49,979 nucleotides of DNA from Allosphingosinicella sp. (GTDB lineage Bacteria > Pseudomonadota > Alphaproteobacteria > Sphingomonadales > Sphingomonadaceae). A program made the translations under genes and the position numbers. Position 1 is the stretch's first letter. Each line of letters opens with the position of its first letter. The stretch covers positions 1-49,979 of the forward strand of contig DASVUW010000348.1 of assembly GCA_036386845.1 (NCBI GenBank), read 5' to 3'. Positions 3,359-30,153 of this stretch are shown here, piece by piece. Under the pieces are notes generated by a model, which made no database searches, had not been told where the DNA came from, and worked only from the letters and a program-made list of their open reading frames with translations.

Positions 3359-3424
3359 TGAGGGCGAACAATAAAGTTTTCCTTGGGACAATTTAGTTTT
3401 CCCACGGCCAATAAAGATTTCCGG
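3359..3424 (+). repeat. Transposon end proximal to glmS (Tn7R-like) with three closely spaced TnsB-binding sites
   Basis: 20-bp periodic motifs AACAATAAAGTTTTCC, GACAATTTAGTTTTCC, GCCAATAAAGATTTCC, resembling Tn7 GACAATAAAGT sites. Confidence 0.9.
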
Positions 3425-3460
3425 ATGAGCGTCGAACGGACGGGCGTGTCTCAGTGCCGG

Positions 3461-3808
3461 TCAGGAAGCAGGTTCGCGCAACTCGCCGAGCTGGTCGAGG
3501 AAGGCGACGATGCGTTCGGCATCGGCGTCGGTTCCCTTCCATACCGCCATCACGCCGCTGATCAGTCGCGCGACTGCCGGATCCGCTCGCTCTGCGTCTG
3601 TGAATCCCTCGATCGAGAGGCCAAGCGTCCTGCAAACTCGCACGACGTTCTGGCTGAGTGTCTTGAACTCCCCGCGGCAGATTCGGCTGACCTGGCTTGC
3701 ATGGACAGCAGCCTTTTCACCTATTTCCGAGTAACTTAGGTCAGACGTCGCCTTACGGAGGGCTATCTCCGTGCGAAGCTTGGTAATGGCGTCGGGGTTG
3801 ACGGACAT
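3461..3808 (-). CDS. XRE-family helix-turn-helix regulator (115 aa)
   Basis: LSYSEIGEKAAVHASQVSRICRG HTH; ATG at 3808 chosen within ORF 3461..4153; divergent from NADAR gene. Confidence 0.8.
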   Translation of the reverse strand: MSVNPDAITKLRTEIALRKATSDLSYSEIGEKAAVHASQVSRICRGEFKTLSQNVVRVCRTLGLSIEGFTDAERADPAVARLISGVMAVWKGTDADAERIVAFLDQLGELREPAS

Positions 3809-3842
3809 GCAGATGTGCATAATAAGGATATGCAGATTTGCA
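3808..3842. promoter_or_regulatory. Tandem operator boxes TGCA-N4-TGCA between XRE and NADAR genes
   Basis: TGCAGATGTGCA (3808-3819) and TGCAGATTTGCA (3831-3842), 23-bp period, in a 42-bp divergent gap. Confidence 0.65.
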
Positions 3843-3850
3843 AAGAGGCG

Positions 3851-4360
3851 ATGATGGACGCGACCGATGAGATCCGCTTCTACAGGGCCAGCGAGAAGCC
3901 CTATGGCGCTTTCAGCAACCTGTTCCGCAGGGAGATTGAATTCGAGGGCGACGTTTTCGCGACGTCCGAGCATGCCTATCAGGCTGGGAAGGCACGCAAG
4001 CCGGAGGTCAGGAAGTGGCTGATGGCGGCGCCGTCGCCGGCGCTGCTCGCAATGGCCGCTCATGGCCTCTATTATTGGGACATCGCGCCGGGATGGTCGA
4101 AGACCAAGTTCGACAGGATGCGCCGGGTCCTGCGGGCGAAGTTCGCGCAGCATGCAGATTTGCGGGAGCTGCTTCTGGGCACCGGGAATGCCGTTCTCAT
4201 CGAAAGTGCGACCGTGGATAACCCGGTCAACCGTCTGTGGGGTCAGGTGAACGGCGTCGGCTCGAACATGCTGGGCGTAATGCTCATGGAGCTGAGGTCG
4301 GAGCTTCGGGGTGAAGAGGCGACCGGAGAAACCTGGCCCGAGCTCATCGCGGCCGAGTGA
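3851..4360 (+). CDS. NADAR / YbiA-family N-glycosidase
   Basis: YGAFSN, TSEHAYQAGK, KFAQHADLRELLLGTG..LIE, WG..G.G.NMLG..LMELR motifs; GAGG RBS before ATG 3851. Confidence 0.9.
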   Translation: MMDATDEIRFYRASEKPYGAFSNLFRREIEFEGDVFATSEHAYQAGKARKPEVRKWLMAAPSPALLAMAAHGLYYWDIAPGWSKTKFDRMRRVLRAKFAQHADLRELLLGTGNAVLIESATVDNPVNRLWGQVNGVGSNMLGVMLMELRSELRGEEATGETWPELIAAE

Positions 4361-4363
4361 GTT

Positions 4364-5320
4364 TCAGAACAGGCCGGGCTCGATTTCATCGCCGAGGTCG
4401 GGATCAAGGCCGTCCAGGATGGCCCGGGCGGTGAGCGGCCCGCAGTTCCGGAATAGACCTCTTGCACCTGTAAAGGCGCAGTTTGCGGCGGCCAGGCGCT
4501 GGCCGGCGAGGATTCCCGGAATAAGCGCCTCCAGCGATTTGAGGGCCTCACCGTTGCGGCCCAGGGACAGCAGCCGATCGATGATTCCGACGGTCACCAT
4601 GTCTCCGGATCCGCTCGTGTCCCGAACGACGGATGCTTTGGTCGCGCCGCAGCGGAGGCCGCGACCGTCGCGTCGGACCTCGAGGCCATCGGCACCGTAG
4701 GTGACGATGGAGATGGCGCCTTTGGGGAGGTCGCGTTCCTCGAGCCGAATCGGGAAACGCTCCGACGAGTATTTGAGGATGCTGGTGTGCCGTAGGGCGC
4801 GGCGAAAGAGCTCCGGATCGTCGATTGCTGACGGCTCGAAATAGACGAGGGCGCCGGCCCGATCCGCCATTTCCATTGCCGAAGCGATCGCCTCGGTAAG
4901 ACGATCTGCATAGAAGATGGCGCACTGATCGAGAGCGGATGACGCCCGGCTTACCTCGAGTTGCTCGATCGGAGTGAAGCGAGGGAAATCCTCGTCGGTA
5001 TCGGGGCAAACGAAGGAGAATGCGTGCTGGCCTTGCGCCGTGTTCACGAGTTGAATGAGAATCGGGGACGCTATGTAAGCGCTGCGGAAGATGTAGCTGA
5101 TGTCGGCCCCGGCATCAGCGAACTCGGACGACAGCGTGTCGCCGACGGCGTCGACGCCGAGGGCGATCACGGGTGCTACCCGGCGGTCGAGGAGCGCAAG
5201 CGAGAGGAGCACGTTTCCGCAGGAACCGCCGAGGGCCTCGAAGGCGTCGGCATCATCGGAGTAGATGCGGTCGAGCACCGTGAACCCGGTTCCGGCGACG
5301 TCGATGGCACCCTTAGGCAA
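4364..5320 (-). CDS. PfkB/ribokinase-family carbohydrate or nucleoside kinase
   Basis: GGSCGNV substrate motif, C-terminal DTSGSGD; TTG start with AAGGAG RBS overlapping the upstream stop. Confidence 0.88.
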   Translation of the reverse strand: MPKGAIDVAGTGFTVLDRIYSDDADAFEALGGSCGNVLLSLALLDRRVAPVIALGVDAVGDTLSSEFADAGADISYIFRSAYIASPILIQLVNTAQGQHAFSFVCPDTDEDFPRFTPIEQLEVSRASSALDQCAIFYADRLTEAIASAMEMADRAGALVYFEPSAIDDPELFRRALRHTSILKYSSERFPIRLEERDLPKGAISIVTYGADGLEVRRDGRGLRCGATKASVVRDTSGSGDMVTVGIIDRLLSLGRNGEALKSLEALIPGILAGQRLAAANCAFTGARGLFRNCGPLTARAILDGLDPDLGDEIEPGLF

Positions 5321-7331
5321 CGGCTGCTCCTTTCATATTCGTTCGCTCTTTGTACCACTCGCCTTCCGGAGCGTCTACAAGCCGCGATACCTCGAGTGCA
5401 AAGCCGCCTTCGTTGGATCTGCCCAGAGAACCGAGAATGCGGAGCAATGCGTCCGGGCCGGTACAGTCTGCGCCGAACAGAGACCAGCCGACATGTTCGC
5501 GGCTGCAGACATGGTCGACGCTGACGCCGAATGGCAGGCCGAGCATGATGTGATCGTTGCCGGAGGCATCGCCCCGATCACCGATGCAGAGCACCTCCTG
5601 GTCTGGAGCGATCTTCGACTGCACCGCATTGACGACGTTGGTCTTGCAGGCCTCCATCAGGCACAGATCGTAGGAATGTCGGGACTGGACGATCTTCAGG
5701 TCATGGTGACCTTCGAAGGGCCCTTGGGCGAAGGCGGCGAGGAAAGCCTCCTCCGACGGAATTTGGTTTTTGCCGATCGTTACCTGAAGCGGGCTGTCCT
5801 TGATTTTGCCGGTGAATAGATCGGGGCGCGATCGCATCCACGCAAGGGCGTTGCGGACCGCGGGCCGCATAGGCGGCTGAGCGAGGCTGATATCCTCGGA
5901 AAGCGGCTTTATGTGGGCACCGTTGTAGTAGCCCATGACGACTTCGTCGTGGTGGCGCCTGGGGAGGAGCTCGCGCAGTCGCTCTCCTGCTGAGCCGCCT
6001 CGACCGGTAGCGATGCCAAGGCGCAGACCCTGATCGATCAGTTCCGTGAGCCGCGTGACCATATCGTCTGTGGGCGGTTCGAGACGCTTCTCAGTCGCGA
6101 CGATTGTTCCGTCATAGTCGAGTACAAGTCCCCCGAATCGCGCCGATGAGAGGCGCTCGACCAGCTTTCGGTGGGCGGCGGGCAGATCGCCGTCGTCGAC
6201 CCCGATTTCGTCGTCCAGGGCACGGGTGAAACGCTTCTGGCGAACAGGCGGCGAGAGGTCGCGGGAAAGCCTGGCCAGCCCGTCCGCCTCATAGATCGGC
6301 CGCGCGAACTCGCCGACGCCTGGTTTCCCGGGATCGATGCCGCGTTGCTCGCTCAGCGTCTCGACGATGGCGAAGCCGTCCAGGAGTGCCAGATAGCCGT
6401 CGAGTCGTGAGCACCGGCCGTAGTCGCGGCTGAGACGGGCTATTGTGGGAGGCAAGGGGCCGTCGATCTCGCTCCAGATAGCTTGGGTTTCAGCGCCGGT
6501 GAGCGCCAGGAGGAAGGCGTCCGCACGGTTGGCGAGCCAGACGTGTCTGCCGTGCGCGAAATTCCTGAAATCGGTCGTCTGAACCGGGAGCGCGGCGGTT
6601 TCCCAGAGAGAGGTCTCGACGAGGACGGCCGCAGGTTTGAGGCGAGGATCGTAAAGGACGATCGCAACTGCGGCTGAAGCTGCACCTGCGAGGAGATCCG
6701 TCCAGTGGCTGCGTGCTTCGCGGCCGAGCCGGGCTTCTGTAAGAGTGGCCACGCTCTGCCCCAGTTCGGATGCTTGGCCTTCATGGGCGACGGCGCCGGC
6801 GGCCATGAGGAGGCTGACCAGGGCCCCGACGAGCGAGTGCGTTGCCAGAAAGCCGTCTTTGGGCTCCACTCGAGGGGTGACTACGACCAGCAGGTCGCGA
6901 ACTCCCTCCGCGGCTTCGATGATTCGGGCATCCGGGTTCGATGTGACGATCGTGATGGTTTTCGCCCCTCGGTTCCGAGCCGCGGTCAGCGCTCCGAGGA
7001 TATCGTGATTGTCGCCGCTGGCGCTAAACAGCCAGACGTCCGTGTCGTGGAGATGCGAGAGTTCCATCGTGAAAGCGAGTGGGGTCCTGACCGTGGTTGG
7101 CCCCCGGCCCAGGGTCGAGCGGCAGAGACGCAGGAATTCGGCGGCGACGGCCGATCCCCCTGATCCGATCGCCATGGCATGTCGGCTGCGGCTGTCGCGC
7201 AGGTGCCGAGCGAGGGCGCTGATATCGGTTGCGGCCGCAGCCTCGGCCGTTTGGGGCAGCAGGTCCAGTTTTTCGGAGAAGATGCCCATAGGTCTTTCTG
7301 GGGCGGACGGAGCCGAATTGCTAGGCTGCAT
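5313..7331 (-). CDS. SIS (sugar isomerase) domain - HAD class IIB phosphatase fusion (alternative start 7289)
   Basis: AIGSGGS, FSASG and FRNFAHG SIS-like motifs; LDYDGT (HAD motif I), IATGRG (II), K...IGDRGDASGND (III/IV). Confidence 0.8.
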   Translation of the reverse strand: MQPSNSAPSAPERPMGIFSEKLDLLPQTAEAAAATDISALARHLRDSRSRHAMAIGSGGSAVAAEFLRLCRSTLGRGPTTVRTPLAFTMELSHLHDTDVWLFSASGDNHDILGALTAARNRGAKTITIVTSNPDARIIEAAEGVRDLLVVVTPRVEPKDGFLATHSLVGALVSLLMAAGAVAHEGQASELGQSVATLTEARLGREARSHWTDLLAGAASAAVAIVLYDPRLKPAAVLVETSLWETAALPVQTTDFRNFAHGRHVWLANRADAFLLALTGAETQAIWSEIDGPLPPTIARLSRDYGRCSRLDGYLALLDGFAIVETLSEQRGIDPGKPGVGEFARPIYEADGLARLSRDLSPPVRQKRFTRALDDEIGVDDGDLPAAHRKLVERLSSARFGGLVLDYDGTIVATEKRLEPPTDDMVTRLTELIDQGLRLGIATGRGGSAGERLRELLPRRHHDEVVMGYYNGAHIKPLSEDISLAQPPMRPAVRNALAWMRSRPDLFTGKIKDSPLQVTIGKNQIPSEEAFLAAFAQGPFEGHHDLKIVQSRHSYDLCLMEACKTNVVNAVQSKIAPDQEVLCIGDRGDASGNDHIMLGLPFGVSVDHVCSREHVGWSLFGADCTGPDALLRILGSLGRSNEGGFALEVSRLVDAPEGEWYKERTNMKGAAVA

Positions 7332-8493
7332 GCTGTGGGGCGTTTTGGTCCGGAGACGGGGCCTGCGGGCCGGCGGACGGTGCCTCGGCGCCGGAGGATT
7401 GCGGGCCGGCGATCAAGCCGCCGTAAATCGGTCCGTCCAGCCACACATGGACAATTCGGTCTGGTGAGGGGCCGCCCTCCCCTCCCCCCGGCGACGGAAG
7501 GTCATACCGGACTGTTTCCACGTAGAGGACGGGCAGTTCGTGCTCGATGGCGGCCATCATCGCCCCGACGGCCATGACCTTGCTGCCGACTGGTGAGAGA
7601 ATGAGCTGCGGCTCGTAAACCTCTTCGACGACTTCGTCGTAGCGGCGCTTCAAGGCCGAAATGGTTCGGTAGGAATCGAGCGGATTGTGCTCCGAGGCAT
7701 AGATGAGATCCCCCTCATGGACCTCCCAATCGTCGCTCAGCTGGTTTCCGAACTCGGTGATGAGCTCGTCGGCTCGCCGCGGGTTCTCGGCGGGGAAAGG
7801 GAGCATGGGGCAGGTCCGATAGACCCCATCAAGGGATGCTCGGATGCTCGTCAAGGCGGCGGCGCGCCCATGGGCGAGCTGAGGGAGCCAGATTTGTGAG
7901 ATGGGTAGGATACGTGGCGGGAGAGCGCCGGCATAACCGCGTACGCTCATGACCCGGTCGTCCGGCTCGGAACGGATTGTCTCGTCCAGGGCCGGGTTTG
8001 AGGTGATCATGAGGTGAAAGCTGAGTTCTGGGTTGCGCTCCGAATATTCGAGGAGAAGCCGGGCCGCGGGGAAGCCGATGCCGATCGAGAGTGCGCTCAT
8101 GTCGAGCACGATGTCGGTGAGGTCGGCCGGCATCGAAAATTGCTTGAGCTCCGCCGCGATGCGGGCTCCGCCGACCGGCGCACCGTCGTCGGCGAAGACC
8201 TGGACCTTGATGACCGAGCAGCTGGGTATCAGCGACTTGAGGTCCGCCTCGTTTGTGTCGGCGCGGATCTGAAGGCTTTGGGTTGGATTGCCTCTCTCTT
8301 CGCGGATCATCAAAGCGCTCAGCCGCGGCCCGAGCACGCTTTGGAGAAGCTTCGGGACGTGGAGGGCGCGCGGGTCGAAGCCGGCGCCGCCGACGACGAG
8401 GCAGCGCCTATGTGCCTGGGCGAAATAGTCACTGACGAATTCGTCGACTCGCGCATCTCGATGGGTGATGCAGTTTTGCCAGTGCGGGCGCAT
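7321..8493 (-). CDS. Uncharacterised protein with probable tandem Rossmann/CARF-like domains
   Basis: Tightly coupled in operon; IVLDMSALS and LILSPVGSKVMAVGAMMAA resemble CARF strand-helix motifs; fold call is inference. Confidence 0.55.
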   Translation of the reverse strand: MRPHWQNCITHRDARVDEFVSDYFAQAHRRCLVVGGAGFDPRALHVPKLLQSVLGPRLSALMIREERGNPTQSLQIRADTNEADLKSLIPSCSVIKVQVFADDGAPVGGARIAAELKQFSMPADLTDIVLDMSALSIGIGFPAARLLLEYSERNPELSFHLMITSNPALDETIRSEPDDRVMSVRGYAGALPPRILPISQIWLPQLAHGRAAALTSIRASLDGVYRTCPMLPFPAENPRRADELITEFGNQLSDDWEVHEGDLIYASEHNPLDSYRTISALKRRYDEVVEEVYEPQLILSPVGSKVMAVGAMMAAIEHELPVLYVETVRYDLPSPGGGEGGPSPDRIVHVWLDGPIYGGLIAGPQSSGAEAPSAGPQAPSPDQNAPQHAA

Positions 8494-8496
8494 GGC

Positions 8497-10413
8497 CTAG
8501 ATTTCCTCGTAGCGAGCGAGGAGCTCGTCCACCGAGCTTTCGATGAAGCCGCCGCGCTTGAGGGTCAGGCCGTATTTGAGGCAGACCGGCCCGGAAAGCT
8601 CGAGGAGACACCACAGCGTGCTGCCTTGACCGTAGTTGCGAACCGCGATCAGCGCTCCATAGGCGATGGCGAATTTCAGCACTGATAGGAGCTCTGAATC
8701 GCCGGCGAGGAACGCCGGCATCTCTTTCTCTTCGATCGCGATGGCGTTCGCTCCCTGCCCGAGCGAGGCGTTGCCTGCCTGGGTGCGACGGTCGCACTCC
8801 GCTGCGAGCCAATCGATGAAGTCGCGAACTCGGCGCGCGTAGGGAAAGCCCCAATTATCGATCATCTCGCTGGCTTGGGTGGCGAGCGCGGCCTGCTGCT
8901 GGGCTGGCGTGAGGGCGGGATCGAGGTTGCGGATGGCTTTCGTCTCCATCCTGGCGACGAGCCGGCCGGCCAACTGGAGGAACAGCTCGGCGTTCTCGTT
9001 GCTGGCGTCACAAAGGTCGGAGAAGCCGTAATGGACTGGGCGGCCAAACCTTTTGTGGAGCTGAAGCCGCGCCCCTTCGGCTATGCCCGCATTGGCTTTG
9101 AGGGGTTTGGGCGGCTCAGGATCGGTGTCGAAGAGACTGAGATTCTTCCCTTCGAGCCGCTTTCTGTATCGATGGAGGAGGATACGCTGCATGGCCAGGC
9201 GGACCTCTTCGCCGGTGTCGTTGCCGCGGCCTCCTTTGGCGCTGCGTGCGTAGAGGTCGACGATCTTCGCGATCTTCTCGCGCCTGTTCGGATGAATTTC
9301 GAGCGCCCTCTGCTCGCGGTCGACGAGCTCCTTCAGCTCCTCGAGCTTGCCCGGAGGAAGCTGCGGCGGCTCCTCGGGGAGCAATGGTGCGAATTGCGTA
9401 TAGTGCCGCCCTTGGAGGGACTTTACGAGGGCGAGGTACCGGTTGGCCATGTCGGAGGCCATTTTGCGGAACTGTTTACGTTCGTCCCCGCGCGTGCCTT
9501 GTGACTGCATGAAGATATCGAGATAGTCTCGGCCGGCCTTCATTCCGGGGATGGCTTCGTCGGGCGAGCGGAACGCTGCTGTCGGGGTGAGTGTGTCGAG
9601 CCGCATCATCAACCAGCGGCCGATCCGCATTTCGCGCCGCGCGAGGATTCGGAAGAGCGCGCCCAGCTGGTCCGGATGGAGCGTATGGACGTCGTCGAGG
9701 ATGACGAGCGGCTTGAGGCGGATCCGATTGCCCTCGATCCAGGAAATTTCGATCTCGCGGATTACCTCGAACGGCTGATAGGGCTCTCGAGCTCGGTCGG
9801 AAATTTGGCTAAGGTCCGGCGGGAGAAGGCTCGATCCGATCGGGTAGACCGCCGCTTCGACCTCTCGGGCGCGCTCATATATGCCTTCGGACGTAGCGCC
9901 GCCGATCTGGTCGAGCTGAGCGTCTCCGTCGTCCTTGAGGATGAATTTGATGTCGCCGATCTTTCGGCGCCGTTCCGCCGTGAGGTTGCGGAACAGGCTG
10001 AGGATCGATCTTGCCTGGACGAGCGAGAAGATTAGGCGGGTTCGAACCGATTCGTCGTAGGGCAGCTCCCAGAAATCGCGATATTCCGATTCCATTGGGA
10101 TGCGGACGGCGGCGGTGCTCGGCACTCCGTCTTGGATGAATCCGCATTGGGCGAGAGCGGACGCGAGGGCGCGGTTTCCCTCGCGGTGCTGGTTTCGCAT
10201 GATCGATTCGACGAGCCTGAACTCGGCGAGCATCGCCATCATTGTCTTGCCGCTGCCAGGAGTGCCGATGACTCGGACCGGCAGGTCGAACAGCAGGCCT
10301 TTCTTCGCGTGGGGGGCGATGAAAGTGGTGAGAGGCTCCGGGCTGACAATCGAGAGGAAGGCGGAGTCGTCCCGGATGTATTCGGTCGCGCGGCGGAGGA
10401 AAGGGTTCGTCAT
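8497..10413 (-). CDS. P-loop NTPase, STAND/ORC-CDC6-like AAA+ (638 aa)
   Basis: MTNPF start, Walker A GTPGSGKT, Walker B VILDDVH; ATG 1 bp after the upstream stop. Confidence 0.8.
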   Translation of the reverse strand: MTNPFLRRATEYIRDDSAFLSIVSPEPLTTFIAPHAKKGLLFDLPVRVIGTPGSGKTMMAMLAEFRLVESIMRNQHREGNRALASALAQCGFIQDGVPSTAAVRIPMESEYRDFWELPYDESVRTRLIFSLVQARSILSLFRNLTAERRRKIGDIKFILKDDGDAQLDQIGGATSEGIYERAREVEAAVYPIGSSLLPPDLSQISDRAREPYQPFEVIREIEISWIEGNRIRLKPLVILDDVHTLHPDQLGALFRILARREMRIGRWLMMRLDTLTPTAAFRSPDEAIPGMKAGRDYLDIFMQSQGTRGDERKQFRKMASDMANRYLALVKSLQGRHYTQFAPLLPEEPPQLPPGKLEELKELVDREQRALEIHPNRREKIAKIVDLYARSAKGGRGNDTGEEVRLAMQRILLHRYRKRLEGKNLSLFDTDPEPPKPLKANAGIAEGARLQLHKRFGRPVHYGFSDLCDASNENAELFLQLAGRLVARMETKAIRNLDPALTPAQQQAALATQASEMIDNWGFPYARRVRDFIDWLAAECDRRTQAGNASLGQGANAIAIEEKEMPAFLAGDSELLSVLKFAIAYGALIAVRNYGQGSTLWCLLELSGPVCLKYGLTLKRGGFIESSVDELLARYEEI

Positions 10414-10414
10414 G

Positions 10415-11539
10415 TCAGCCGTGCCTGTCCCGTCGATGGAAGAGGGGGCGCATGCGGTGCCTCCCGGCCTCTCCTGAAGTTTCTGCCCAGAGGAGCGAGA
10501 TGCTGTTGTTGGGCGTATTGTGCTCCATGACCACGGGCAGCGCGCATTCCGCATAGCCGCGCCTCAGGTGGGTCTGCCCTGGACAATGTTTCTGCAGCCG
10601 GTCGAAGAGCGCGCGGTCGTAGTAGCGGTCGCACAGGCCCAGGATCCCCGGATCCGTTGTCGCCGTGAGTTGCGCGCTCGAGGGGAGCAGCAGGCCCTCT
10701 GTGATCGTGTAGCGGCCATAGGACTTTGCTTCCCATTCCGCCTCGGCCTGGGCGAGGCGCTGGTTAAGCGCCTGCCGCGCTTGGTAGCTGGAAATGTAGT
10801 GGTGGATATGGAGGTCGTATCCGTTCGCGATCGGGAAGTCGTCTCCGAGGCGCTTGCCCGCTTTTGCGACCAGCGCGTTGAACTTGGTGAGCTTACCCTT
10901 CCATCTGCCGTCGGCCTCCTTCCGGATGAATGTCGTGCCGGAAGCGGTGAAGTCGTCGATGAGATAGACGTTGTCGAACTTCGCCCCGGCGCCCTCCTCC
11001 GTCGTAAGGTCCTCTTGTAGGCCCCGCCACTTCTCGTCATCGATGTACATCATCGGGACGACCTGCTCCTGGGATATCCTCCGGTCCGCCCGCCTGAGGA
11101 TATCGATGCGGCTTCCATCGCTGAGGCCGACGAGGAGCGTCCGCCGGAGTCGATTGTCGAAGCGCTCGACGCTCTGAGGCGTCGCCCAGACCTCGTAGGG
11201 CTTGATGCCGAGTTCAGCGGCGACCTGGTGCCGAAGCATCGGCGTGACGGTCTCGGGGATGAACGCTTCGATGACTCGTCGCAGTTCGGCCGGAGATATG
11301 TAGATCAGCCGATTTTTGACGAAGTCGTAGGCAGTCTGCCGATCGGCGGGAGCAAATTGCTTCAGCCAGTTGGCCAGGCTCTCGATGAACCTCGCGCCGG
11401 CACGAAAGTCGCCATAGGTATCGTATTTCACCGCGGACATGAGACGCAGCCAGGCATATTCCTGGGTGGCGGTGCTTTCGTCCGACTCCGCCCAACCCAT
11501 GACCTCGGCAATCAGGTTGAGCGCCATCTTGTCGTTCAT
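10415..11539 (-). CDS. Phosphoribosyltransferase-like protein (conflict-system PRTase type, 374 aa)
   Basis: PRPP-binding loop VYLIDDFTASGTT; GLSDGS; C-terminal GY...HNTPNNSI.LLW...PLF.R. Confidence 0.75.
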   Translation of the reverse strand: MNDKMALNLIAEVMGWAESDESTATQEYAWLRLMSAVKYDTYGDFRAGARFIESLANWLKQFAPADRQTAYDFVKNRLIYISPAELRRVIEAFIPETVTPMLRHQVAAELGIKPYEVWATPQSVERFDNRLRRTLLVGLSDGSRIDILRRADRRISQEQVVPMMYIDDEKWRGLQEDLTTEEGAGAKFDNVYLIDDFTASGTTFIRKEADGRWKGKLTKFNALVAKAGKRLGDDFPIANGYDLHIHHYISSYQARQALNQRLAQAEAEWEAKSYGRYTITEGLLLPSSAQLTATTDPGILGLCDRYYDRALFDRLQKHCPGQTHLRRGYAECALPVVMEHNTPNNSISLLWAETSGEAGRHRMRPLFHRRDRHG

Positions 11540-11819
11540 CGGGTTACCCTGGACTCCATCGGACGCGTCTAGGCCCTCGGCACCTGTGGGTCGAGGGGCG
11601 TAAAACCTCGGGTGTGCCTTCGGCGGACGTAGGGGGCAGCGAGTGTTCTCATCTTGGGAAATTGAGCCTCGTTGGGCAGATCGAGTCCGCGATAGAATAA
11701 GTCGGCGCGGGCGGCGAGTATCGACCGGGCGCACCCATTGAGACTAGTCGTTTGCGGACGGCAGGTTACAACGAGCGCAGGGTGCGACGGGGGCAGCATG
11801 ATCGCGCGGGCTTGTACTT

Positions 11820-12377
11820 ATGGCTAGGCGCCGAGCGCAGTCGAAGAACGACCCTAGCGGGTGCGGTTTGCTGGTCCTGATCCTGGTTATCGTATTCGCG
11901 ATCAGCAAATGCAGTGGTGGCGGCGATGGCACGGTTGATCAGGACGCCGCAAGATTGCCTGAAAGGCCTTCGGGATCGACGGAGATGCGGTTCGTTTCGT
12001 CGGATGCTCTGAACTGCCGGAGTGATGCACGTACGTCGGCGAAGGTCGTATCGCGCTTTGCGTTCGGCGACAGCGTTACGGTTCGGCAGGAGAAGGATGG
12101 CTGGTCGGAGGTCGATGCGGCGGGTACCTCGTGCTGGATGGCCAGTCGCTATCTGGTGGATGCCTATCCGATGCGATCGCGCGAGCCCAGGTCATACACG
12201 CCGGCGCCGCGGGCGGCGGTTCGGCCAAAGCGTGAGCGCGGTCTGCAATGCAGCGGCAAACGCACCTGCGGCGAGATGAACAGCTGCGCCGAGGCGAATT
12301 TCTATCTCGATGAATGCGGCGTTTCACGCTTGGACGGCGACGGAGACGGGGTCCCGTGCGAATCGATATGCGGGTAA
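11820..12377 (+). CDS. Membrane-anchored SH3b + excalibur calcium-binding domain protein
   Basis: N-terminal TM; LNCRS...GWSEV..CWMASRYL (SH3b); C-terminal CGEMNSCAEA...LDGDGDGVPCE. Confidence 0.8.
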   Translation: MARRRAQSKNDPSGCGLLVLILVIVFAISKCSGGGDGTVDQDAARLPERPSGSTEMRFVSSDALNCRSDARTSAKVVSRFAFGDSVTVRQEKDGWSEVDAAGTSCWMASRYLVDAYPMRSREPRSYTPAPRAAVRPKRERGLQCSGKRTCGEMNSCAEANFYLDECGVSRLDGDGDGVPCESICG

Positions 12378-12397
12378 CCCGGCGCTTTGAAGGGAGA

Positions 12398-12757
12398 TCA
12401 ATTCGGCAGGTTGCCATGCTCTTGAAGGAGGCGGGTCATTCGGTCGAAGGCAGTCGCCGAAAGCGTGACGATCGCTCGGCTCATCTCGCCTTTGGCATTT
12501 ACCCGTTCAACCAGGCCGTGCTCTTCCAGCAGATCGAGCCAGCGCACGTCGTCAGCCGCCACTGAGGCGGCTATCGAGGTAGCGATGACTGATACCGGTC
12601 GCGGTTCACTGGCGGCGATGTAGAGATCGAGGAGTAGGTCCCACGCCGGTTCCCCGAAGAGTCCGGGGCCGAACGCCTGATCGCGCATGCGCCGCAGTCG
12701 GTAGAGGCGTCGAGCCTCTTCGAAGGCGCCTGCGGAAGCGTTTCTGAGGCGAGACAT
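12398..12757 (-). CDS. Winged-helix (MarR-like) DNA-binding protein
   Basis: RRMRDQAFGPGLFGEPAWDLLLDLY...RWLDLLEEHGLVER, a family common in sphingomonads. Confidence 0.75.
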   Translation of the reverse strand: MSRLRNASAGAFEEARRLYRLRRMRDQAFGPGLFGEPAWDLLLDLYIAASEPRPVSVIATSIAASVAADDVRWLDLLEEHGLVERVNAKGEMSRAIVTLSATAFDRMTRLLQEHGNLPN

Positions 12758-12980
12758 GGGATGGTTCCGGACGAAAGGTCCGTTTTGGATTATACGAATC
12801 CGCAGGGTTGTCGAGTACCAGCCAACGGAAATGCAGTAATCGTATATATGGGCGGTCCAGTGCTGGTCCGCTGCAGATCCAGCCCCTCGATCCTGTTTGA
12901 CGTGGGCCCGCAACGAAGCGGCCGGGACCGGCGATGAAATGCTCTTGGCATTCCGCGCTGGCGCGGCGACATGGGACGGG

Positions 12981-13883
12981 ATGAAGACGAGCCTCGATCA
13001 TCTGCCGGACGGCAAGCAGCGAGAGCTCGCCTCGGTGGTTCGGATTCTCTTTGAGGAGTTCGAGTCGGTCACCGCACGGGCCAGCCAGCAGTGGAAGAAG
13101 GGCGGCCGCATCCTAAAGGTGGTGCTGTATGGCTCCTATGCCCGGGGAGACTGGGTGGACGATCCGGTCGGTGGGTACAGGTCGGACTACGACATCCTGG
13201 TCGTCGTCAGCGACGAGAGATTAACGGACGTCGTGGATTTTTGGTCGATCGCCGACGATCGGCTCCTGCGGGAGACGTCCATCACCGGGAGCCTGACCGC
13301 GCCCGTCAACTTCATCGTCCACTCTCTTTCAGACGTGAATAGCCAGCTCGAGCGGGGCCGCCCCTTCTTCGTTGATATCGTGGAGCATGGAGCGGTGCTC
13401 TACGAGGCGCAGGGCTTCGCTTTCACGACGCCGAGGAAGCTGCCGGAGGAACAGGCTAAGGTCGAAGCTAAGGCCTATTTCAATGAATGGTATCCCAGCG
13501 CTGAGCGCCGTTTCGATCTTGCCCGCACGGCGGCCGACAAGGGATATTGGAAGGAAGCTGCCTTCGACCTCCATCAGACGGCGGAGCGGCTATATCATTG
13601 CCTGCTGCTCGTTCTGACGCTCTACAGCCCGAAGTCGCACAAGCTGAATTTCCTGCGATCCCAAGCCGAGCAGATCGCTCCGGAGTTGATCGGGGCTTGG
13701 CCACGGGAAGCCAAGTTCGAGCGCCGGGCTTTCGAGCTGCTGCGACAGGCCTACGTGAACGCGCGTTACTCGCCGCACTACAGGATCTCTGAGAAGGAGA
13801 TCGCCTGGCTCACCGAGCATATCACCGTGCTCAAGCAGCTGGTTGAGCGCACCTGCCGTGAGAGGCTGGGGCAGAACGGCTAG
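12981..13883 (+). CDS. Nucleotidyltransferase (MNT) - HEPN fusion protein
   Basis: MKTSLDHLP start; LYGSYARGDW...SDYDILVVV; C-terminal AAFDLHQTAE...H.L..L...AYVNARY. Confidence 0.88.
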   Translation: MKTSLDHLPDGKQRELASVVRILFEEFESVTARASQQWKKGGRILKVVLYGSYARGDWVDDPVGGYRSDYDILVVVSDERLTDVVDFWSIADDRLLRETSITGSLTAPVNFIVHSLSDVNSQLERGRPFFVDIVEHGAVLYEAQGFAFTTPRKLPEEQAKVEAKAYFNEWYPSAERRFDLARTAADKGYWKEAAFDLHQTAERLYHCLLLVLTLYSPKSHKLNFLRSQAEQIAPELIGAWPREAKFERRAFELLRQAYVNARYSPHYRISEKEIAWLTEHITVLKQLVERTCRERLGQNG

Positions 13884-13913
13884 AGAGGGTTACAGGCACG
13901 GGATCCAGGTCGC

Positions 13914-13944
13914 TTGACTCTGACATGGTGTCAAACACCATGTG
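13914..13944 (+). promoter_or_regulatory. MerR/CueR-type promoter (19-bp spacer) for the Cu-ATPase-cueR operon
   Basis: TTGACT, 19-bp spacer containing dyad TGACA-TGG-TGTCA, then CATGTG. Confidence 0.75.
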
Positions 13945-13992
13945 AGGTTCCACGGAAGCCGAATCGGCGGCTTCGTCGAGGAGGACCGTGCT

Positions 13993-16346
<2,354 letters not shown>

Positions 16347-16350
<4 letters not shown>

Positions 16351-16742
16351 AGATCGGGCAGGCTTCGGTCGAGAGCGGCGTCAGCCAGCGGATGATCCGC
16401 CACTACGAGTCGATCGGGCTGATCGGCAAGGCGGCGCGGCGGGACTCAGGCTACCGCGACTATGACGAGCGGGACATCCACACCCTCCGCTTCATCCGCC
16501 GCGCGAGGGACCTGGGGTTTCCCATCGAGGAGATCGGCCAGCTGCTGGCGCTCTGGCAGGATCGCGGCCGTGCGAGCGCGGACGTGAAGGCCCTGGCCCT
16601 GGCCTGGGCCGCGGAGCTGAAGCGCAAGGCGAAGGAGCTGGACGCCATGAGGAAGTCGCTCGAGCATCTGGCGGCCAATTGCCACGGCGACGATCGCCCC
16701 GACTGCCCGATCCTGGGCGGCTTGGAGGGGACGGCGTCATGA
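16347..16742 (+). CDS. cueR: Cu(I)-responsive MerR-family regulator
   Basis: MKIGQAS..SGVS..MIRHYE HTH; C-terminal [12 protein letters not shown]. Confidence 0.93.
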
Positions 16743-17215
16743 ACATCCGATTCCGGACCATTGTAACCGGCGGCCTGGCGGCCTATCTGCCCCGCGTGTC
16801 CCTGACGCGTTTCATCCGGTTCCTTACCATCCTTGCGCTGGCCCTGTCGCCGCTCGCCACCTTCGTCGCCGCGCCCGCGTCGGCGACCGCGCATCATGCG
16901 GCGATGGCGGCCCAAGGCCACCAGATGGACGGTCACGAAATGCCTGGCCATGACAAGGTCGGCGATGCCTCGATGGCGGCTATGCAGCTTTGTAAGGACA
17001 TGGGCGACCAGCCGATGGACCAGCCTTGCGGGTCCGGCGATAGTGACTGCGTCAAGGCCTGTGCCGCCGTTCCCGCGATCCCGGCCGTTGGCGGCCAGCT
17101 CGAACCACAGGTCCTGAACCATGGTCCCCAGCGGATGCCGGCTCTGGTATCCGTGCCCCACGGCCTCGTGCCCGAGGCGGCGACTCCCCCTCCCCGAGGA
17201 CTCCTGAAGATCTGA
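16739..17215 (+). CDS. CutF/CopL-like exported leader protein with CxxxC and C-terminal PPPR motif
   Basis: Signal peptide (LTILALALSPLATFVAAPASA), His/Met-rich middle, DCVKAC, PEAATPPPRG near stop; start ATG 16739 (or GTG 16796). Confidence 0.7.
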   Translation: MNIRFRTIVTGGLAAYLPRVSLTRFIRFLTILALALSPLATFVAAPASATAHHAAMAAQGHQMDGHEMPGHDKVGDASMAAMQLCKDMGDQPMDQPCGSGDSDCVKACAAVPAIPAVGGQLEPQVLNHGPQRMPALVSVPHGLVPEAATPPPRGLLKI

Positions 17216-17239
17216 GACCTTTCTCGATTTTCCAGGAGT
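17200..17239 (+). promoter_or_regulatory. Hairpin sequestering the Shine-Dalgarno of the next gene
   Basis: ACTCCTG (17200-17206) pairs with CAGGAGT (17233-17239); inner AAGATC/GATTTT and GAGA/TCTC stems; spans the stop of the leader ORF. Confidence 0.7.
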
Positions 17240-17245
17240 GACACC

Positions 17246-17479
17246 ATGAAGAAGATGTTGGCCGCGCTCGCGCTTGCGATCGCTCTCCCCGCCGTTGCCC
17301 ATGCTCAGGCAGCTCCCGCTCCCGCTCCCGCGCCGGAGAAGAAGATGGAGTGCTGCTGCGAGAAGATGGGCATGAAGATGGACTGCTGCGACAAGCACGG
17401 CAAAGCCGCTGCTGGTCACGATGAGCATGCCGGCCACGACATGAGCCAGCATCAGCAGCACCAGAAGCCCCAGCAGTAA
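17246..17479 (+). CDS. Small secreted Cys/Met/His-rich metal-binding protein
   Basis: Signal peptide AVAHA; MECCCEKMGMKMDCCDKH, HDEHAGHDMS; AGGAG RBS. Confidence 0.8.
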   Translation: MKKMLAALALAIALPAVAHAQAAPAPAPAPEKKMECCCEKMGMKMDCCDKHGKAAAGHDEHAGHDMSQHQQHQKPQQ

Positions 17480-17487
17480 TTGATGTC

Positions 17488-17511
17488 GCGAGGCGGCAGC
17501 TGCCGCCTCGC
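17488..17511. terminator. GC-rich perfect palindrome (hairpin; terminator or mRNA-stability element)
   Basis: GCGAGGCGGCAG/CTGCCGCCTCGC directly after the stop; no strong U-tract. Confidence 0.5.
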
Positions 17512-17565
17512 ACTCGGCTGACGGCCTGCGCGCGTCTTCGAAGGCGCTCGCGAGTGAGGATTATC

Positions 17566-19386
17566 ATGGATCAGTTTTCAGTAGACCGCCGGACGCTGCT
17601 CCGCGCCGGAGCCTTGGGTACCATTGGCGTCGGCATGCCGGGCCTGTTCCCCGCCTGGGCGCAAAGCGGGACGAGTGGCCTTGCGCCGACCCTGCCGACG
17701 CTTTCGGGCGAGAACATCGCGCTGGAGATCGGCAAGACTCCCTTCAAAGTGCGCGGCCGAAGCGTCCATGCGGTGACGATCAACGGCACCGTGCCGGGCC
17801 CGCTGCTGCGGTTGCGGGAGGGTCAGAACGTCCGGATCACGGTGAACAACCGCCTGGACGAGGATACCTCAATCCATTGGCACGGCTTCATCCTGCCGTT
17901 CCAGATGGACGGCGTGCCCGGCGTCAGCTTTCCCGGGATCAAGGCGAAGTCGACGTTCGTCTATGAGTTCCCAATCCGGCAGTCGGGCACCTACTGGTAT
18001 CACAGCCATTCCGGGCTTCAGGAGCAGCTCGGCCATTACGGGCCGATCGTGATCGATCCCGCTGGCGCCGACCCGGTCGGCTACGACCGCGAGCATGTGA
18101 TCGTGCTCTCCGACTGGACCTTCCGGCACCCGCACGAGCTCATCACGAAGCTGAAGAAGGAAGGCGGCTATTTCAACCGGCAGAAGATGACCCTGCTTGG
18201 GCGCCTTAGCGGCGATCCCGAGCAGCAGATGCCGGCCGCCGACCGGAAGATGTTCGCCAAGATGCGGATGGACCCGGCCGACATCCTCGACGTGACCGCC
18301 GCCGCCTACACCTATCTGATCAACGGCCATGGCCCGGCCGACAATTGGACCGGCCTGTTCAGGCCCGGCGAGCGGGTTCGGCTGCGGATCATCAACGCCG
18401 CCGCGATGACGATCTTCAATATCCGGATTCCGGGTTTGGACATGAAGGTGGTCGCCACCGACGGCCAGAACGTGGTGCCGGTCGAGGTCCATGAGCTTCA
18501 GATCGGCAATGCCGAGACCTATGACGTGATCGTCGAGCCTCGGGACCAGGCTTACACCTTCGTCGCCGAGGCGATGGACCGCTCAGGGATGGGCTTGGCG
18601 ACCCTTGCGCCCCGGATGGGGATGACCGCCGCAATCCCCCCACTCAGGCAGCGTCCCGTCCTGACGATGAAGGACATGGGCATGGGCGGCATGGACCACG
18701 GCTCGATGGGTCACGGTGCTGGCGGCCGCGCGGCCGCGGGCGGCGCCATGGCTGGGATGGATCATGGAAGCCACTCCGCCTCGTCGAGCGGCGGCGGGTC
18801 TTCGCCGACCTCGATGGACATGAGCGGCATGAACATGCGCGACAAGTCAAAGGTGCCGCCGCACGTCAAGGTCGGGGTCGGCGTCGACTCAATCGCGATG
18901 GCGCCCGTCGACCGCACCGGAGACCCGGGCCTCGGCTTGGACGGGGTCGGGCACAAGGTGCTGACCTACCGCGATCTGCGGGCTCTGACCCCGAGCACGG
19001 ACACCAGAGTTCCCGCGAGGACCGTCGAGATTCACCTGACCGGCAACATGGAGCGCTTCATGTGGTCGATCGACGGGGAGAAGTTCAGCGAGAATCCCGA
19101 GCCGATCCGCTTCGAGCGGAACGAGCGGGTCCGGGTGACGATGATCAACCACTCGATGATGACTCACCCGATGCACATCCACGGCCATTTCTTCGAGGTC
19201 GTGAACGGGCAGGAGGCGAAGCCGATCAAGCACACGGTGATGGTGCTGCCCGGGGCGAAGCTGAGTTTCGACATGACCGCCGACGCGCCCGGCGACTGGG
19301 CGTTCCACTGCCACCTCCTGCTCCACATGCACGCCGGGATGATGCGTGTCGTGACGGTGCGGCCCCTCGATGGAGACGCGGCATGA
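17566..19386 (+). CDS. copA: Copper-resistance multicopper oxidase
   Basis: Tat signal DRRTLL; HWHG, WYHSH, HPMHIHGH, HCHLLLHM copper ligands; Met-rich insert. Confidence 0.96.
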   Translation: MDQFSVDRRTLLRAGALGTIGVGMPGLFPAWAQSGTSGLAPTLPTLSGENIALEIGKTPFKVRGRSVHAVTINGTVPGPLLRLREGQNVRITVNNRLDEDTSIHWHGFILPFQMDGVPGVSFPGIKAKSTFVYEFPIRQSGTYWYHSHSGLQEQLGHYGPIVIDPAGADPVGYDREHVIVLSDWTFRHPHELITKLKKEGGYFNRQKMTLLGRLSGDPEQQMPAADRKMFAKMRMDPADILDVTAAAYTYLINGHGPADNWTGLFRPGERVRLRIINAAAMTIFNIRIPGLDMKVVATDGQNVVPVEVHELQIGNAETYDVIVEPRDQAYTFVAEAMDRSGMGLATLAPRMGMTAAIPPLRQRPVLTMKDMGMGGMDHGSMGHGAGGRAAAGGAMAGMDHGSHSASSSGGGSSPTSMDMSGMNMRDKSKVPPHVKVGVGVDSIAMAPVDRTGDPGLGLDGVGHKVLTYRDLRALTPSTDTRVPARTVEIHLTGNMERFMWSIDGEKFSENPEPIRFERNERVRVTMINHSMMTHPMHIHGHFFEVVNGQEAKPIKHTVMVLPGAKLSFDMTADAPGDWAFHCHLLLHMHAGMMRVVTVRPLDGDAA

Positions 19387-20624
19387 AGCGGTTGATCCCC
19401 TTTCTCCTCGCCACGGGTTTGGCTAGCCCGGCGCTGGCCCAGCATACGGGGCACGGGGCGCCGGCGGCAAATCAGGCGTCTGCCTCGCCGGCACCGGCGG
19501 CGACATGCACGCCCGAGCACGCGGCGATGGGCCACTGCAAGGTGCCTACTCCGGCTCCGGCTGCGACTCCGGCTCCGGCCGCGACACCAGCGCAGACATG
19601 TTCGCCTGAGCATGCTGCGATGGGCCACTGCAAGGTGCCCGCTGCGGCTCCCGCCCCCGCGCCCGCTCCTACTCCGGCGCCAGCCCAGGCTTGCTCGCCC
19701 GAGCACGCTGCTTTGGGCCATTGCACCCTGCCATCGCCTGCGCCCGCGGCTGCGCCAGCGTCGACCTGCTCGCCTGAGCATGCGGCCATGGGTCATTGCA
19801 GGCTGCCTACCGGGCCCGCGCCTGCGGCCTCCGATCCCCATGCGGGCCACGCGACGGGCGAGCAGATGCCCGATCCTCCGGTCACGCCCACGCCGCCTGG
19901 CGCGCTTTCAGGCCCGGCCCATGCCGCCGACGCGGTCTTCGGCCGCGAGTCGATGGCCGAGGCGCGTGAAGAGCTTCGCCGGGAGCATGGTTCGATCGTC
20001 ACCTCGAAGGTGATGCTCGACCAGGTCGAGGCGCGGATCAGGAAGGGTCGCGACGGCTACCTGGTCGAAGGCGAGGCCTGGTATGGCGGCGACATCAACA
20101 AGCTCTGGGTGAAGACCGAGCTGGAGGGCGAGTTCGGCCGCAGCCCGGAGCATGCCGAGGTCCAGGCGCTCTGGAGCCGGGCCATCAACCCGTGGTGGAA
20201 TCTGCAGGCGGGCGTTCGCTACGATGTCCGGCCGGATCCGGAGCGTGCGCACCTGGTGCTGGGGATAGAGGGGCTTGCTCCCTACTGGTTCGAGATCGAT
20301 GCCGCGGCGTTCATCTCGCACAAGGGCGACGTCACGGCCCGCTTCGAGGCCGAGTACGACCAGCGGCTGACCCAGAAACTCATCCTCCAGCCGCGGATCG
20401 AGTTCGACCTCGCCGCCCAGGACATCCCGGAGCTCGGCATCGGCTCGGGCCTCTCCACTGCCGAGCTCGGCCTTCGCCTCCGCTACGAGATCGTGCCCGA
20501 GATCGCTCCCTATGTCGGCGTCGCTTACGAGCGCGCCTTCGGGAACACCGCCGACTTCCGGCGCGCGGCCGGCGACCGGGCCGGAGGCTTGAACTTCCTG
20601 GTGGGAGTGAGGGCATGGTTCTGA
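19383..20624 (+). CDS. copB: Copper resistance outer-membrane protein B
   Basis: ATGA overlap with copA; signal peptide; WYGGDINKLWVK, GIEGLAPYWFE, GLRLRYEI, GVRAWF terminus. Confidence 0.93.
   Translation: MKRLIPFLLATGLASPALAQHTGHGAPAANQASASPAPAATCTPEHAAMGHCKVPTPAPAATPAPAATPAQTCSPEHAAMGHCKVPAAAPAPAPAPTPAPAQACSPEHAALGHCTLPSPAPAAAPASTCSPEHAAMGHCRLPTGPAPAASDPHAGHATGEQMPDPPVTPTPPGALSGPAHAADAVFGRESMAEAREELRREHGSIVTSKVMLDQVEARIRKGRDGYLVEGEAWYGGDINKLWVKTELEGEFGRSPEHAEVQALWSRAINPWWNLQAGVRYDVRPDPERAHLVLGIEGLAPYWFEIDAAAFISHKGDVTARFEAEYDQRLTQKLILQPRIEFDLAAQDIPELGIGSGLSTAELGLRLRYEIVPEIAPYVGVAYERAFGNTADFRRAAGDRAGGLNFLVGVRAWF
19506..19800 (+). repeat. Four intragenic repeats encoding C(T/S)PEHAA(M/L)GHC in CopB
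   Basis: CTPEHAAMGHC, CSPEHAAMGHC, CSPEHAALGHC, CSPEHAAMGHC separated by Pro/Ala linkers. Confidence 0.9.
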
Positions 20625-21259
20625 CCCGCCTGGCGGCGCTGATCGTGCTCTGGGTGGCCGCCCTCGCCCTCGGCGTGTCGCCGGCCGGCGCTCACAAGAA
20701 GGAGAGGCATGCTCCCCCGGCGGCGGCCCAGCAGGGGTCGGTTCCGGGGACTGCAGTGGCGACAGACGCTCCCATGGCCGGGCACGACATGAGCAGCATG
20801 ATGGAGAAGATGGAAGAGGACCGCGCCGGAATGTCGACGCTGGAGCGGTTCGGCGACTGGCTGGGCCGGCTGCATCCGATCGTCATCCACTTCCCGCTCG
20901 CGTTCTTCCCGGCCGCCTTGTTCACCGCGATTGTCGGCCGAAGGAGACCCGCCTTTGCCGCGCCGGTCCAGTTTCTGGTCGTGGCGGGCGGGATCATCGC
21001 TCCGATCGCAATGGTGCTCGGCTGGCTCACGGGCGGCTTGACCCTGACGGACACGGACCCGTTGCTTCGAGTCCACCGCTGGCTCGGGACCGCCATTGGC
21101 CTATCCGGGTTCGCACTGGCGATATGGGCCTGGAAGCGGCCCGAGGACGACCGCAGCGCGGGAATGATCGCCGCGCTCGGGGGCATCACGGCCGCGATAA
21201 TCGTCCAAGGATGGTTCGGCGGCGCGCTCGTCCACGGCATCGATCACATGGACTGGTGA
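20615..21259 (+). CDS. DUF2231-like membrane protein
   Basis: LHPIVIHFP, H..LG, GWFGGALVHG motifs; signal peptide and Met-rich segment. Confidence 0.75.
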   Translation: MVLTRLAALIVLWVAALALGVSPAGAHKKERHAPPAAAQQGSVPGTAVATDAPMAGHDMSSMMEKMEEDRAGMSTLERFGDWLGRLHPIVIHFPLAFFPAALFTAIVGRRRPAFAAPVQFLVVAGGIIAPIAMVLGWLTGGLTLTDTDPLLRVHRWLGTAIGLSGFALAIWAWKRPEDDRSAGMIAALGGITAAIIVQGWFGGALVHGIDHMDW

Positions 21260-21290
21260 AATCTGAATTTGAGTTGAGAAGGAGAAAGCG

Positions 21291-21686
21291 ATGAAGACCA
21301 TATCAAAGCTGGGACTGGGCGTTGCCCTGCTGGCGCTGACCGCCGGCTGCGGGAGTGAGGCCCCGTCCCACGACAATCATGCCGCAGCGAATGAGCAGAA
21401 CATCGTCGACAACGGCATGATCGTGGATCCGGAAATCCCGAATGCGGCTGCCCAAGCGAACGTCGCCGCCGCGCCCGAGCCGAAGGTCGAACCCGCGGCC
21501 GCCAACGAGCCGGGAGCGGTGAAGATCGCGCCGGTGCTCCCGGCGCCTCCGAAGGCCCCACCCAAGGCGAAGGCCGACGCGCCGAAGGCAAAGGCCGAGG
21601 TCCCGAAGGCGGTGCCGAAGGCTGAGCCGTCTCCCCCGGCGAAAGCGGAATGCTTGCCTGAGCACCGGGCGGCAGGCCACTGCTGA
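21291..21686 (+). CDS. Pro/Ala/Lys-rich lipoprotein with terminal CLPEHRAAGHC motif
   Basis: Lipobox LTAGC; AAGGAG RBS. Confidence 0.75.
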   Translation: MKTISKLGLGVALLALTAGCGSEAPSHDNHAAANEQNIVDNGMIVDPEIPNAAAQANVAAAPEPKVEPAAANEPGAVKIAPVLPAPPKAPPKAKADAPKAKAEVPKAVPKAEPSPPAKAECLPEHRAAGHC

Positions 21687-21761
21687 TGTTCCAGTGAAGG
21701 GCGGTCCGGGGCCGGAGAGGCGGCCCCGGGCTGCGCTGTGTAGGCGGGCAGGAGCTTCAGG

Positions 21762-30138: not shown

Positions 30139-30153
30139 TCCCGGGGAGCCTAA

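Follow-up and report, generated by a model that had tools for sequence, protein, structure and literature searches.

A mobile two-module cassette in a Tn7-like element of Allosphingosinicella sp.: a PRTase-ATPase-CARF triad joined to a sugar-phosphate kit

What might an operon do that joins a conflict-type phosphoribosyltransferase (PRTase), a P-loop ATPase and a CARF protein to enzymes of sugar-phosphate chemistry? This question is raised by positions 4364..11539 of a 49,979-nucleotide stretch of DNA from Allosphingosinicella sp. (GenBank assembly GCA_036386845.1, contig DASVUW010000348.1), referred to here in its full length as the window, in which five minus-strand genes encode, in the order of transcription, a PRTase of the PRTase-CE type, an ORC/CDC6-like ATPase, a tandem-CARF protein (CARF6), a fusion of a double SIS domain with a HAD phosphatase (SIS-HAD) and a PfkB-family kinase (Table 1). 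The families PRTase-CE, ORC-CDC6-like and CARF6 have already been catalogued; the whole cassette is real, conserved and uncharacterised. It consists of two modules, a PRTase-ATPase-CARF triad and a swappable sugar-phosphate kit formed by SIS-HAD, PfkB and a NADAR-family protein.

A preliminary description of this DNA had reported five minus-strand genes separated by gaps of 1 and 3 bp and overlaps of 11 and 8 bp. The five open reading frames (ORFs) were found at those positions and the recomputed intergenic distances are 1, 3, -11 and -8 bp; the value of -11 depends on the start of the SIS-HAD gene, since the alignments of most of the nearest homologues begin only around Met15, which is the probable start (position 7289) and would turn the overlap into a 31-bp gap. 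The motifs singled out there (IDDFTASGTT in the PRTase, NPF, GTPGSGKT and ILDDVH in the ATPase, DYDGT in the HAD domain and DTSGSGD in PfkB) are all present and conserved in homologues. The placement of the operon as the first cargo block of its transposon has to be revised: an HTH gene and a NADAR gene, both overlooked earlier, precede it. NADAR converges on PfkB with a gap of 3 bp, and both genes belong to the system. The whole unit spans 8.1 kb with intact reading frames inside a transposon with both ends, and each of the six proteins tested is present in a single copy in the 89%-complete genome. A promoter scan of the locus remained at chance level.

Conservation and inheritance of the two modules

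Loci were collected with CARF, SIS-HAD and PRTase queries, a contig scan with one protein having given four close loci; the 38 loci counted are non-redundant and extend at least 2.5 kb on either side of the cluster, shorter and duplicate loci being excluded. All five genes are present in 34 of the 38 loci, NADAR in 25 and a homologue of the HTH gene in 18. Of the remaining four loci, one is a truncated copy (L075) and one a sister cassette (L115); the other two (L098 and L101) are taken up below. The preliminary description had held that rare co-occurrence would speak against a single system and that the genes form one unit outside ordinary sugar metabolism; the frequency with which they stand together and the lack of a conserved transporter in the annotated full-cassette loci bear out this view. 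Similarly, among 72,556 plasmids, 20 records match SIS-HAD, 19 match CARF and 18 match the ATPase, and all 19 and all 18 lie within the 20; the CARF6 protein of L115 has no plasmid match.

The system is rare, patchy and mobile. It occurs in one of 40 relatives, with three strong matches in 400 genomes of the class and four in 400 genomes of the phylum, and its carriers include plasmids of Alpha- and Betaproteobacteria and of Actinomycetota, integrase regions and an intact Tn7-like element. One SIS-HAD homologue is labelled archaeal. Homologues of CARF6 were found in none of the annotated phages or viral contigs searched.

The division into two modules is apparent from the pairwise identities between loci, the correlations of which, computed over 25-40 loci per pair and descriptive in that kin are not independent, are 0.90-0.95 within PRTase-ATPase-CARF, 0.70-0.84 within SIS-HAD-PfkB-NADAR and 0.53-0.59 between triad and kit. 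The PRTase follows the triad in this respect, correlating at 0.90-0.91 with ATPase and CARF and at 0.57-0.59 with the kit. Moreover, L099, L100 and L108 each combine a distant triad with a kit that belongs to another clade, and in L099 (15408-29681) a single NADAR-SIS-HAD-PfkB kit is followed by two distinct PRTase-ATPase-CARF triads, which a patatin gene separates. The kit thus changes triads yet almost never stands alone, and the simplest coupling that would account for both is a shared metabolite. In L100, and in this locus only, a gene resembling nucleoside 2-deoxyribosyltransferases (9224-10099) lies just upstream of the kit.

The proteins of the cassette and its sisters

Family matches and the CARF fold agree with the earlier assignment of the triad as a conflict-type PRTase, an ATPase and a tandem-CARF protein. 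The PRTase matches Pfam PF24390 (E 1.5e-17, 64.7 bits, cut-off 27) and the PADLOC model of the retron effector PRTase_III-A (E 2e-14). Its predicted structure (mean predicted local distance difference test score, pLDDT, 92) ranks highest with type I PRTases, the best match being HGPRT (Z 8.8, root-mean-square deviation (rmsd) 4.1, 155 residues aligned). The loop for phosphoribosyl pyrophosphate (PRPP) is kept in 53 of 55 homologues, and the G-x14-PNN motif of the retron effectors in 55 of 55; the final Pro of Gx14PNNxP occurs in none of the 55. The ATPase scores just under the Pfam PF24389 cut-off of 27 (E 2.6e-6, 26.9 bits), which its homologues in the five-gene loci of two other genomes (G696 and G466) pass; Walker A is conserved in 62 and Walker B in 64 of 64 homologues, and no solved full-length relative was found by sequence. 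As in catalogued cassettes, the ATPase gene directly follows the effector gene and is itself followed by the CARF6 gene.

The CARF protein matches PADLOC PDLC01910 (E 1.9e-97), and its model (pLDDT 87.8) consists of two Rossmann-like domains and a disordered tail, without an effector domain. In a fold comparison by VIA-align the best match is Can1 (6sce; Z 14.6, rmsd 4.5, 238 residues aligned), followed by other CARF proteins; Foldseek returned only matches of poor geometry. Two motifs, which we take to be candidate ligand loops, are conserved in 55 and 51 of 57 homologues. Fused or longer forms of CARF6 were not found, which is weak evidence, and an Atlas look-up of the protein returned only unnamed clusters.

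To place the triad among its relatives, we considered the PF24389 matches in 401 genomes. These amount to 10, of which two are five-gene loci and one is a coordinate duplicate that was omitted; six of the seven others hold an ATPase-CARF6 pair and together with L115 give seven sister cassettes. In these, the ATPase gene is preceded by a gene for PRTase-CE in three cases, for HD-CE in one and for a metallophosphoesterase (calcineurin) in three, and a DNA methylase adjoins five of the seven. No SIS, HAD or PfkB match was found among the scanned genes of the sisters (39 of the 53 called in L140-L146, where L144 ends soon after the CARF gene). Conversely, methylase matches lie within 5 kb of only three of the 34 five-gene loci (L033, L058 and L111), in variable positions, and Pfam and PADLOC detect no DNA methyltransferase adjoining the operon of the window. 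The constant core is therefore ATPase-CARF6; the PRTase occupies a slot that other enzymes attacking nucleotides can fill, and the position of the kit is taken in most sisters by a methylase. That the same ATPase-CARF6 pair occurs with HD-CE or calcineurin makes the PRTase slot look like that of an effector, and the PRTase is more likely to be a toxic effector than a signal maker; the idea that it makes the CARF ligand is correspondingly less supported. As to the surroundings of individual sisters, L141 (4345-11027) lies between dGTPase and dUTPase genes with a methylase downstream of CARF6, and L115 (2844-14114), in the order C5 methylase-PRTase-ATPase-CARF6, has a GmrSD-domain gene and a type III methylase as neighbours.

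The enzymes of the kit have recognisable active sites. SIS-HAD matches Pfam SIS and Hydrolase_3, with profile matches to NagB-II/phosphosugar isomerase and HAD-IIB structures. In the SIS part E244 is conserved in 131 and H260 in 130 of 133 homologues, and in the HAD part D405 in 132 and D407, K563, D585 and D593 in all 133. The 16-residue spacing of the Glu/His pair is likewise that of the catalytic pair reported, in the available passages, for the double SIS enzymes GlmS, FrlB and FraB (PMC10285752). The PfkB kinase (Pfam E 1.1e-11) has fructokinases as its closest solved relatives (E 4e-18) and keeps DxxGxGD in 47 of 47 homologues. It also carries a near-invariant H-x-F...C-P insertion at residues 99-113, which in one clade reads CPxCG, a possible zinc site; the clade of the window keeps the first Cys only. 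NADAR (Pfam E 7.5e-24; YbiA 2b3w, E 6e-21) is the most conserved protein, with 59-81% identity to the copy in the window across loci. In total, SIS-HAD, PfkB and NADAR resemble enzymes of de-ribosylation and deglycation, and by this analogy they likely process the product of the PRTase.

Possible function and alternative explanations

Combining these data, we consider a role of the cassette in defence quite probable. For the model as a whole our confidence falls a little short of even, and we propose tentatively that the mobile two-module cassette is an abortive-infection system in which the kit serves for clean-up: (i) the ATPase and the tandem-CARF protein would detect infection and activate the PRTase, (ii) the PRTase would be toxic to the cell in that it consumes PRPP to form an aberrant phosphoribosyl product, and (iii) SIS-HAD, PfkB and NADAR would remove or recycle this product, and uninfected cells could tolerate or reset PRTase activity. 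Within the kit, NADAR would cut the N-ribosyl bond, PfkB and the double SIS would process Amadori-type adducts in the manner of a fructosamine kinase and its deglycase, and the HAD domain would trim phosphate. N-phosphoribosyl amines rearrange to Amadori-type adducts, and the repair of ribulosamines proceeds by a phosphatase and then a kinase. The weakest step of this scheme is the assignment of the kit to a line of de-ribosylation or repair.

That the PRTase is the toxic output is likely by analogy with Retron-Eco11 and ShosT. According to the available passages, the activated Retron-Eco11 PRTase halves PRPP (PMC12746101), and the toxicity of ShosT requires PRPP binding, its acceptor being stated as unknown (PMC12961424). 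For the kit, excerpts describe NADARs as N-ribosyl hydrolases that act as antitoxins (PMC11125620, PMC9503650), and the action of a kinase and then of a double-SIS enzyme as a bacterial route for undoing Amadori adducts (PMC10285752). The earlier proposal of a PRTase metabolite on which SIS-HAD and PfkB act fits a module that co-evolves separately and stays attached to PRTase triads; the reading of the operon as a nucleotide-signalling one, with the PRTase as maker of the CARF ligand, is less supported.

Several observations weigh against this model. Defence genes detected by PADLOC (E<=1e-15, with one TnsB match dropped and genes called by a home-made caller) make up 24 of 187 genes within 5 kb of the 34 five-gene loci and 7 of 123 in a control of 14 arbitrary 12-kb regions from five genomes, a difference that is borderline (Fisher p=0.052); in a stricter count by eye the numbers are 16 and 4 (p=0.096). 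The neighbouring defence genes include Gabija, Lamassu, type I restriction-modification, Septu-like and Mokosh-like genes, and the neighbourhood is suggestive, not decisive. In the three sister PRTase cassettes the scan of adjacent genes revealed no kit, and a PRTase-CE effector thus does not always need one. L101 has NADAR and lacks a PfkB match, and in L098 a SIS-HAD gene stands alone behind an operon for a sugar ABC transporter. Where SIS-HAD precedes PfkB, 34 of 37 loci contain NADAR, but where CARF precedes PfkB only two of 22 do; that NADAR is dispensable depending on gene order argues against an essential antitoxin role. Finally, the Glu/His pair is common to isomerases, deaminases and deglycases, and does not single out deglycation.

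Alternatively, the PRTase and the kit may together build a ribosylated messenger or self-mark, which we regard as unlikely. The PRTase would add ribose-5-phosphate, the HAD domain would dephosphorylate it and SIS and PfkB would supply or remodel the sugar; CARF6-ATPase would read the product, NADAR would erase it and the kit would functionally replace the DNA methylase, the position of which in five of the seven sisters it indeed occupies. The conservation of the candidate ligand-loop motifs and the presence of a CARF protein in an operon in which Pfam detects no cyclase are in agreement with this scheme, and in the excerpts available ribosyl transfer by a PRTase and then a HAD phosphatase is established for CriT/CrpP, which act on glycans (PMC10299916), and for Ter systems it has been proposed that PRTase and HAD proteins make signals (PMC7824862). 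However, a PRTase that writes leaves no effector in the operon, the occurrence of CARF6-ATPase with HD-CE or calcineurin and no PRTase means that the CARF6 ligand is not generally a PRTase product, and the kit co-evolves less closely with the PRTase than ATPase and CARF do. A more specific version, in which PRTase and kit write a ribose-derived mark (an N-phosphoribosyl or ribulosamine adduct) on DNA or a nucleotide in place of methylation, with the CARF-ATPase as reader and NADAR as eraser, is a long shot; if true, the reading of such a mark would mean that glycation-type chemistry is used deliberately in bacterial immunity.

The kit could also be a second effector arm that burns ATP or drains pentose phosphates and in that way deepens PRPP starvation. 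CARF-activated HAD phosphatases do lower ATP as anti-phage effectors (PMC12715507), the catalytic residues are all conserved and the kit is almost never lost; yet a kit that swaps between distant triads is hard to reconcile with direct control by the switch, and the passages available present the NADAR family mainly as antitoxins and repair enzymes; we consider such an arm improbable. We give a similarly low probability to a toxin-antitoxin-like module for maintenance or exclusion that serves the transposon or plasmid: the plasmid, integrase-region and Tn7-like locations and the borderline defence enrichment would suit it, but a set of five to seven genes, with an ATPase and a CARF protein among them, far exceeds the needs of addiction, and related PRTase systems are anti-phage in the excerpts at hand. 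Least credible, and in our judgement very improbable, is that the operon is metabolic and serves to salvage or break down an Amadori compound or a nucleoside. The succession of a kinase and a double SIS enzyme follows the logic of fructoselysine catabolism, as far as the available passages describe it, and the SIS-HAD gene of L098 does follow a sugar ABC operon; against this, the annotated full-cassette loci have no conserved transporter and the kit is bound to CARF6, ATPase and PRTase in 34 of the 38 loci. Ordinary sugar catabolism was rejected.

The Tn7-like carrier and comparison with known systems

The carrier is a Tn7-like element, as had been proposed: it has tns genes and paired ends and is flanked by the 5-bp target duplication GACCG (3354-3358 and 49386-49390). 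Insertion occurred 25 bp after the glmS stop, repeated end sites lie at 3369, 3389 and 3409 with an inverted copy at 49362, and the GC content is 0.638 as against a genome average of 0.674. All the marks of Tn7 at glmS, i.e. tnsABC with tnsD, paired ends and a 5-bp duplication after glmS, are thus present. Two TniQ/TnsD-family genes (46046-47791 and 47922-49208, in the block 44391-49208) follow tnsC, which suggests two target pathways.

The Pycsar and AbiEii modules named in the preliminary description are indeed cargo of the element, but not neighbours of the operon: they lie 19-25 kb off, past a block of copper and metal resistance, and share a transposon with it rather than a neighbourhood. 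Two Pycsar modules stand in tandem at 30544-35177 (PycC and cNMP-TIR, then PycC, E2 and PycTM), followed by the AbiEii nucleotidyltransferase (35897-36757) and a DEDDh exonuclease (38513-39409); several ORFs at 37.7-41.3 kb have no family match in Pfam, PADLOC and profile scans. The resistance block (13942-28874) comprises two heavy-metal P-type ATPases, a MerR regulator, a multicopper oxidase, CopB, a cation efflux protein and a serine hydrolase of beta-lactamase fold. A gene for a nucleotidyltransferase-HEPN fusion (12897-13883) lies 1.4 kb upstream of the operon.

Table 1. Coordinates of the cassette genes and of the carrier element in the window
Feature	Position	Strand	Evidence
PRTase-CE-type phosphoribosyltransferase, 374 aa, predicted toxic effector	10415..11539	-	Pfam PF24390, PADLOC, model
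ORC/CDC6-like P-loop ATPase, 638 aa, predicted switch	8497..10413	-	Pfam PF24389, Walker motifs
Stand-alone tandem-CARF protein (CARF6), 390 aa, predicted ligand sensor	7321..8493	-	PADLOC PDLC01910, model
SIS-SIS isomerase/deglycase-like domain fused to HAD-IIB phosphatase, 672 aa	5313..7331	-	Pfam, profile matches
PfkB-family kinase, 318 aa	4364..5320	-	Pfam PfkB
NADAR/YbiA-family N-glycosidase; start may be ATG at 3851/3854	3815..4360	+	Pfam NADAR
XRE-type HTH regulator, divergent from NADAR	3461..3808	-	Pfam HTH_3, E 1.5e-4
Tn7-like element, both ends	3359..49385	.	Repeated end sites, target duplication
tnsA, tnsB, tnsC, tnsD and second TniQ/TnsD gene	41384..49208	+	Pfam, PADLOC

Among known systems, the type III-A retron (Retron-Eco11) shares the PRTase-like effector with its PRPP loop and G-x14-PNN; Gx14PNNxP is the motif given for retron PRTase effectors in the available part of PMC12746101. 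The cassette differs from this retron in the missing final Pro and in its sensor, predicted here to be ATPase-CARF. A retron was rejected, as no reverse transcriptase match was found in the 45 ORFs of the window and no Rfam match in the window. DS-32 is, in the passages available, a validated anti-phage pair of PRTase and NADAR alone, the mechanism of which is stated as open (bioRxiv 2025.01.08.631726); here, NADAR is optional and lies on the opposite strand. Similarity to the two NCBIfam models of DS-32 is weak: NADAR reaches 59 bits against DS32_2 (E 2.4e-16, cut-off 240), and the PRTase model is matched by five of 55 members, far below its cut-off (best E 0.0036). ShosTA and Ophion are likewise PRTase-based anti-phage systems according to excerpts, and Ophion needs its PRTase (bioRxiv 2025.09.30.679545, in part); their partners, a DprA-like antitoxin and a radical SAM and a PHP protein, respectively, were not detected in the operon by Pfam or PADLOC.

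With Can1 and other CARF effectors of type III CRISPR systems, the CARF protein shares two CARF domains per chain, but it has no nuclease or output domain. A CRISPR-linked CARF effector (Can1, Csm6, Card1) was rejected, given that the scanned ORFs of the window hold no cas10 or other cas match and that no output domain is present. The kit shares with the FrlB/FraB deglycases, the GlmS isomerase domain and NagB-II the double SIS, the Glu/His pair 16 residues apart and a kinase neighbour, FrlD being a PfkB-family kinase; in contrast to these, its double SIS is fused to HAD, and it lacks a transporter and lies inside a CARF/ATPase cassette.

Closest of all are the catalogued cassettes in which PRTase-CE, HD-CE or calcineurin is combined with an ORC-CDC6-like ATPase and CARF6 (PADLOC PDLC01910-01924), in the same order of effector, ATPase and CARF6. 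No paper on this gene set was found; the papers on CARF classification and PRTase-CE, reportedly Makarova 2020 and Nicastro 2023, or their supplements may list the neighbourhood. The literature passages available that name these families are silent on this system, and two-CARF fusions were noted in 2014, in the excerpt available (PMC4012209). The description of the operon as undescribed is only partly true: the five-gene form is neither a retron nor DS-32 nor a CRISPR-linked CARF effector, but its families PRTase-CE, ORC-CDC6-like and CARF6 are known ones. ATPase-CARF6 cassettes are widespread; the kit adds three enzymes with recognisable chemistry, the substrate of which would likely reveal the PRTase product, and is therefore the most tractable entry to the question of what conflict-type PRTases make and what CARF6 binds. 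Compared with the catalogued PRTase-CE (PF24390), HD-CE (PF24391) and PF24389 cassettes, the cassette described here carries the kit and NADAR and an ATPase of a divergent clade below the Pfam cut-off, and the window adds the NADAR-HTH extension, the Tn7-like carrier with both ends and the evidence for two modules.

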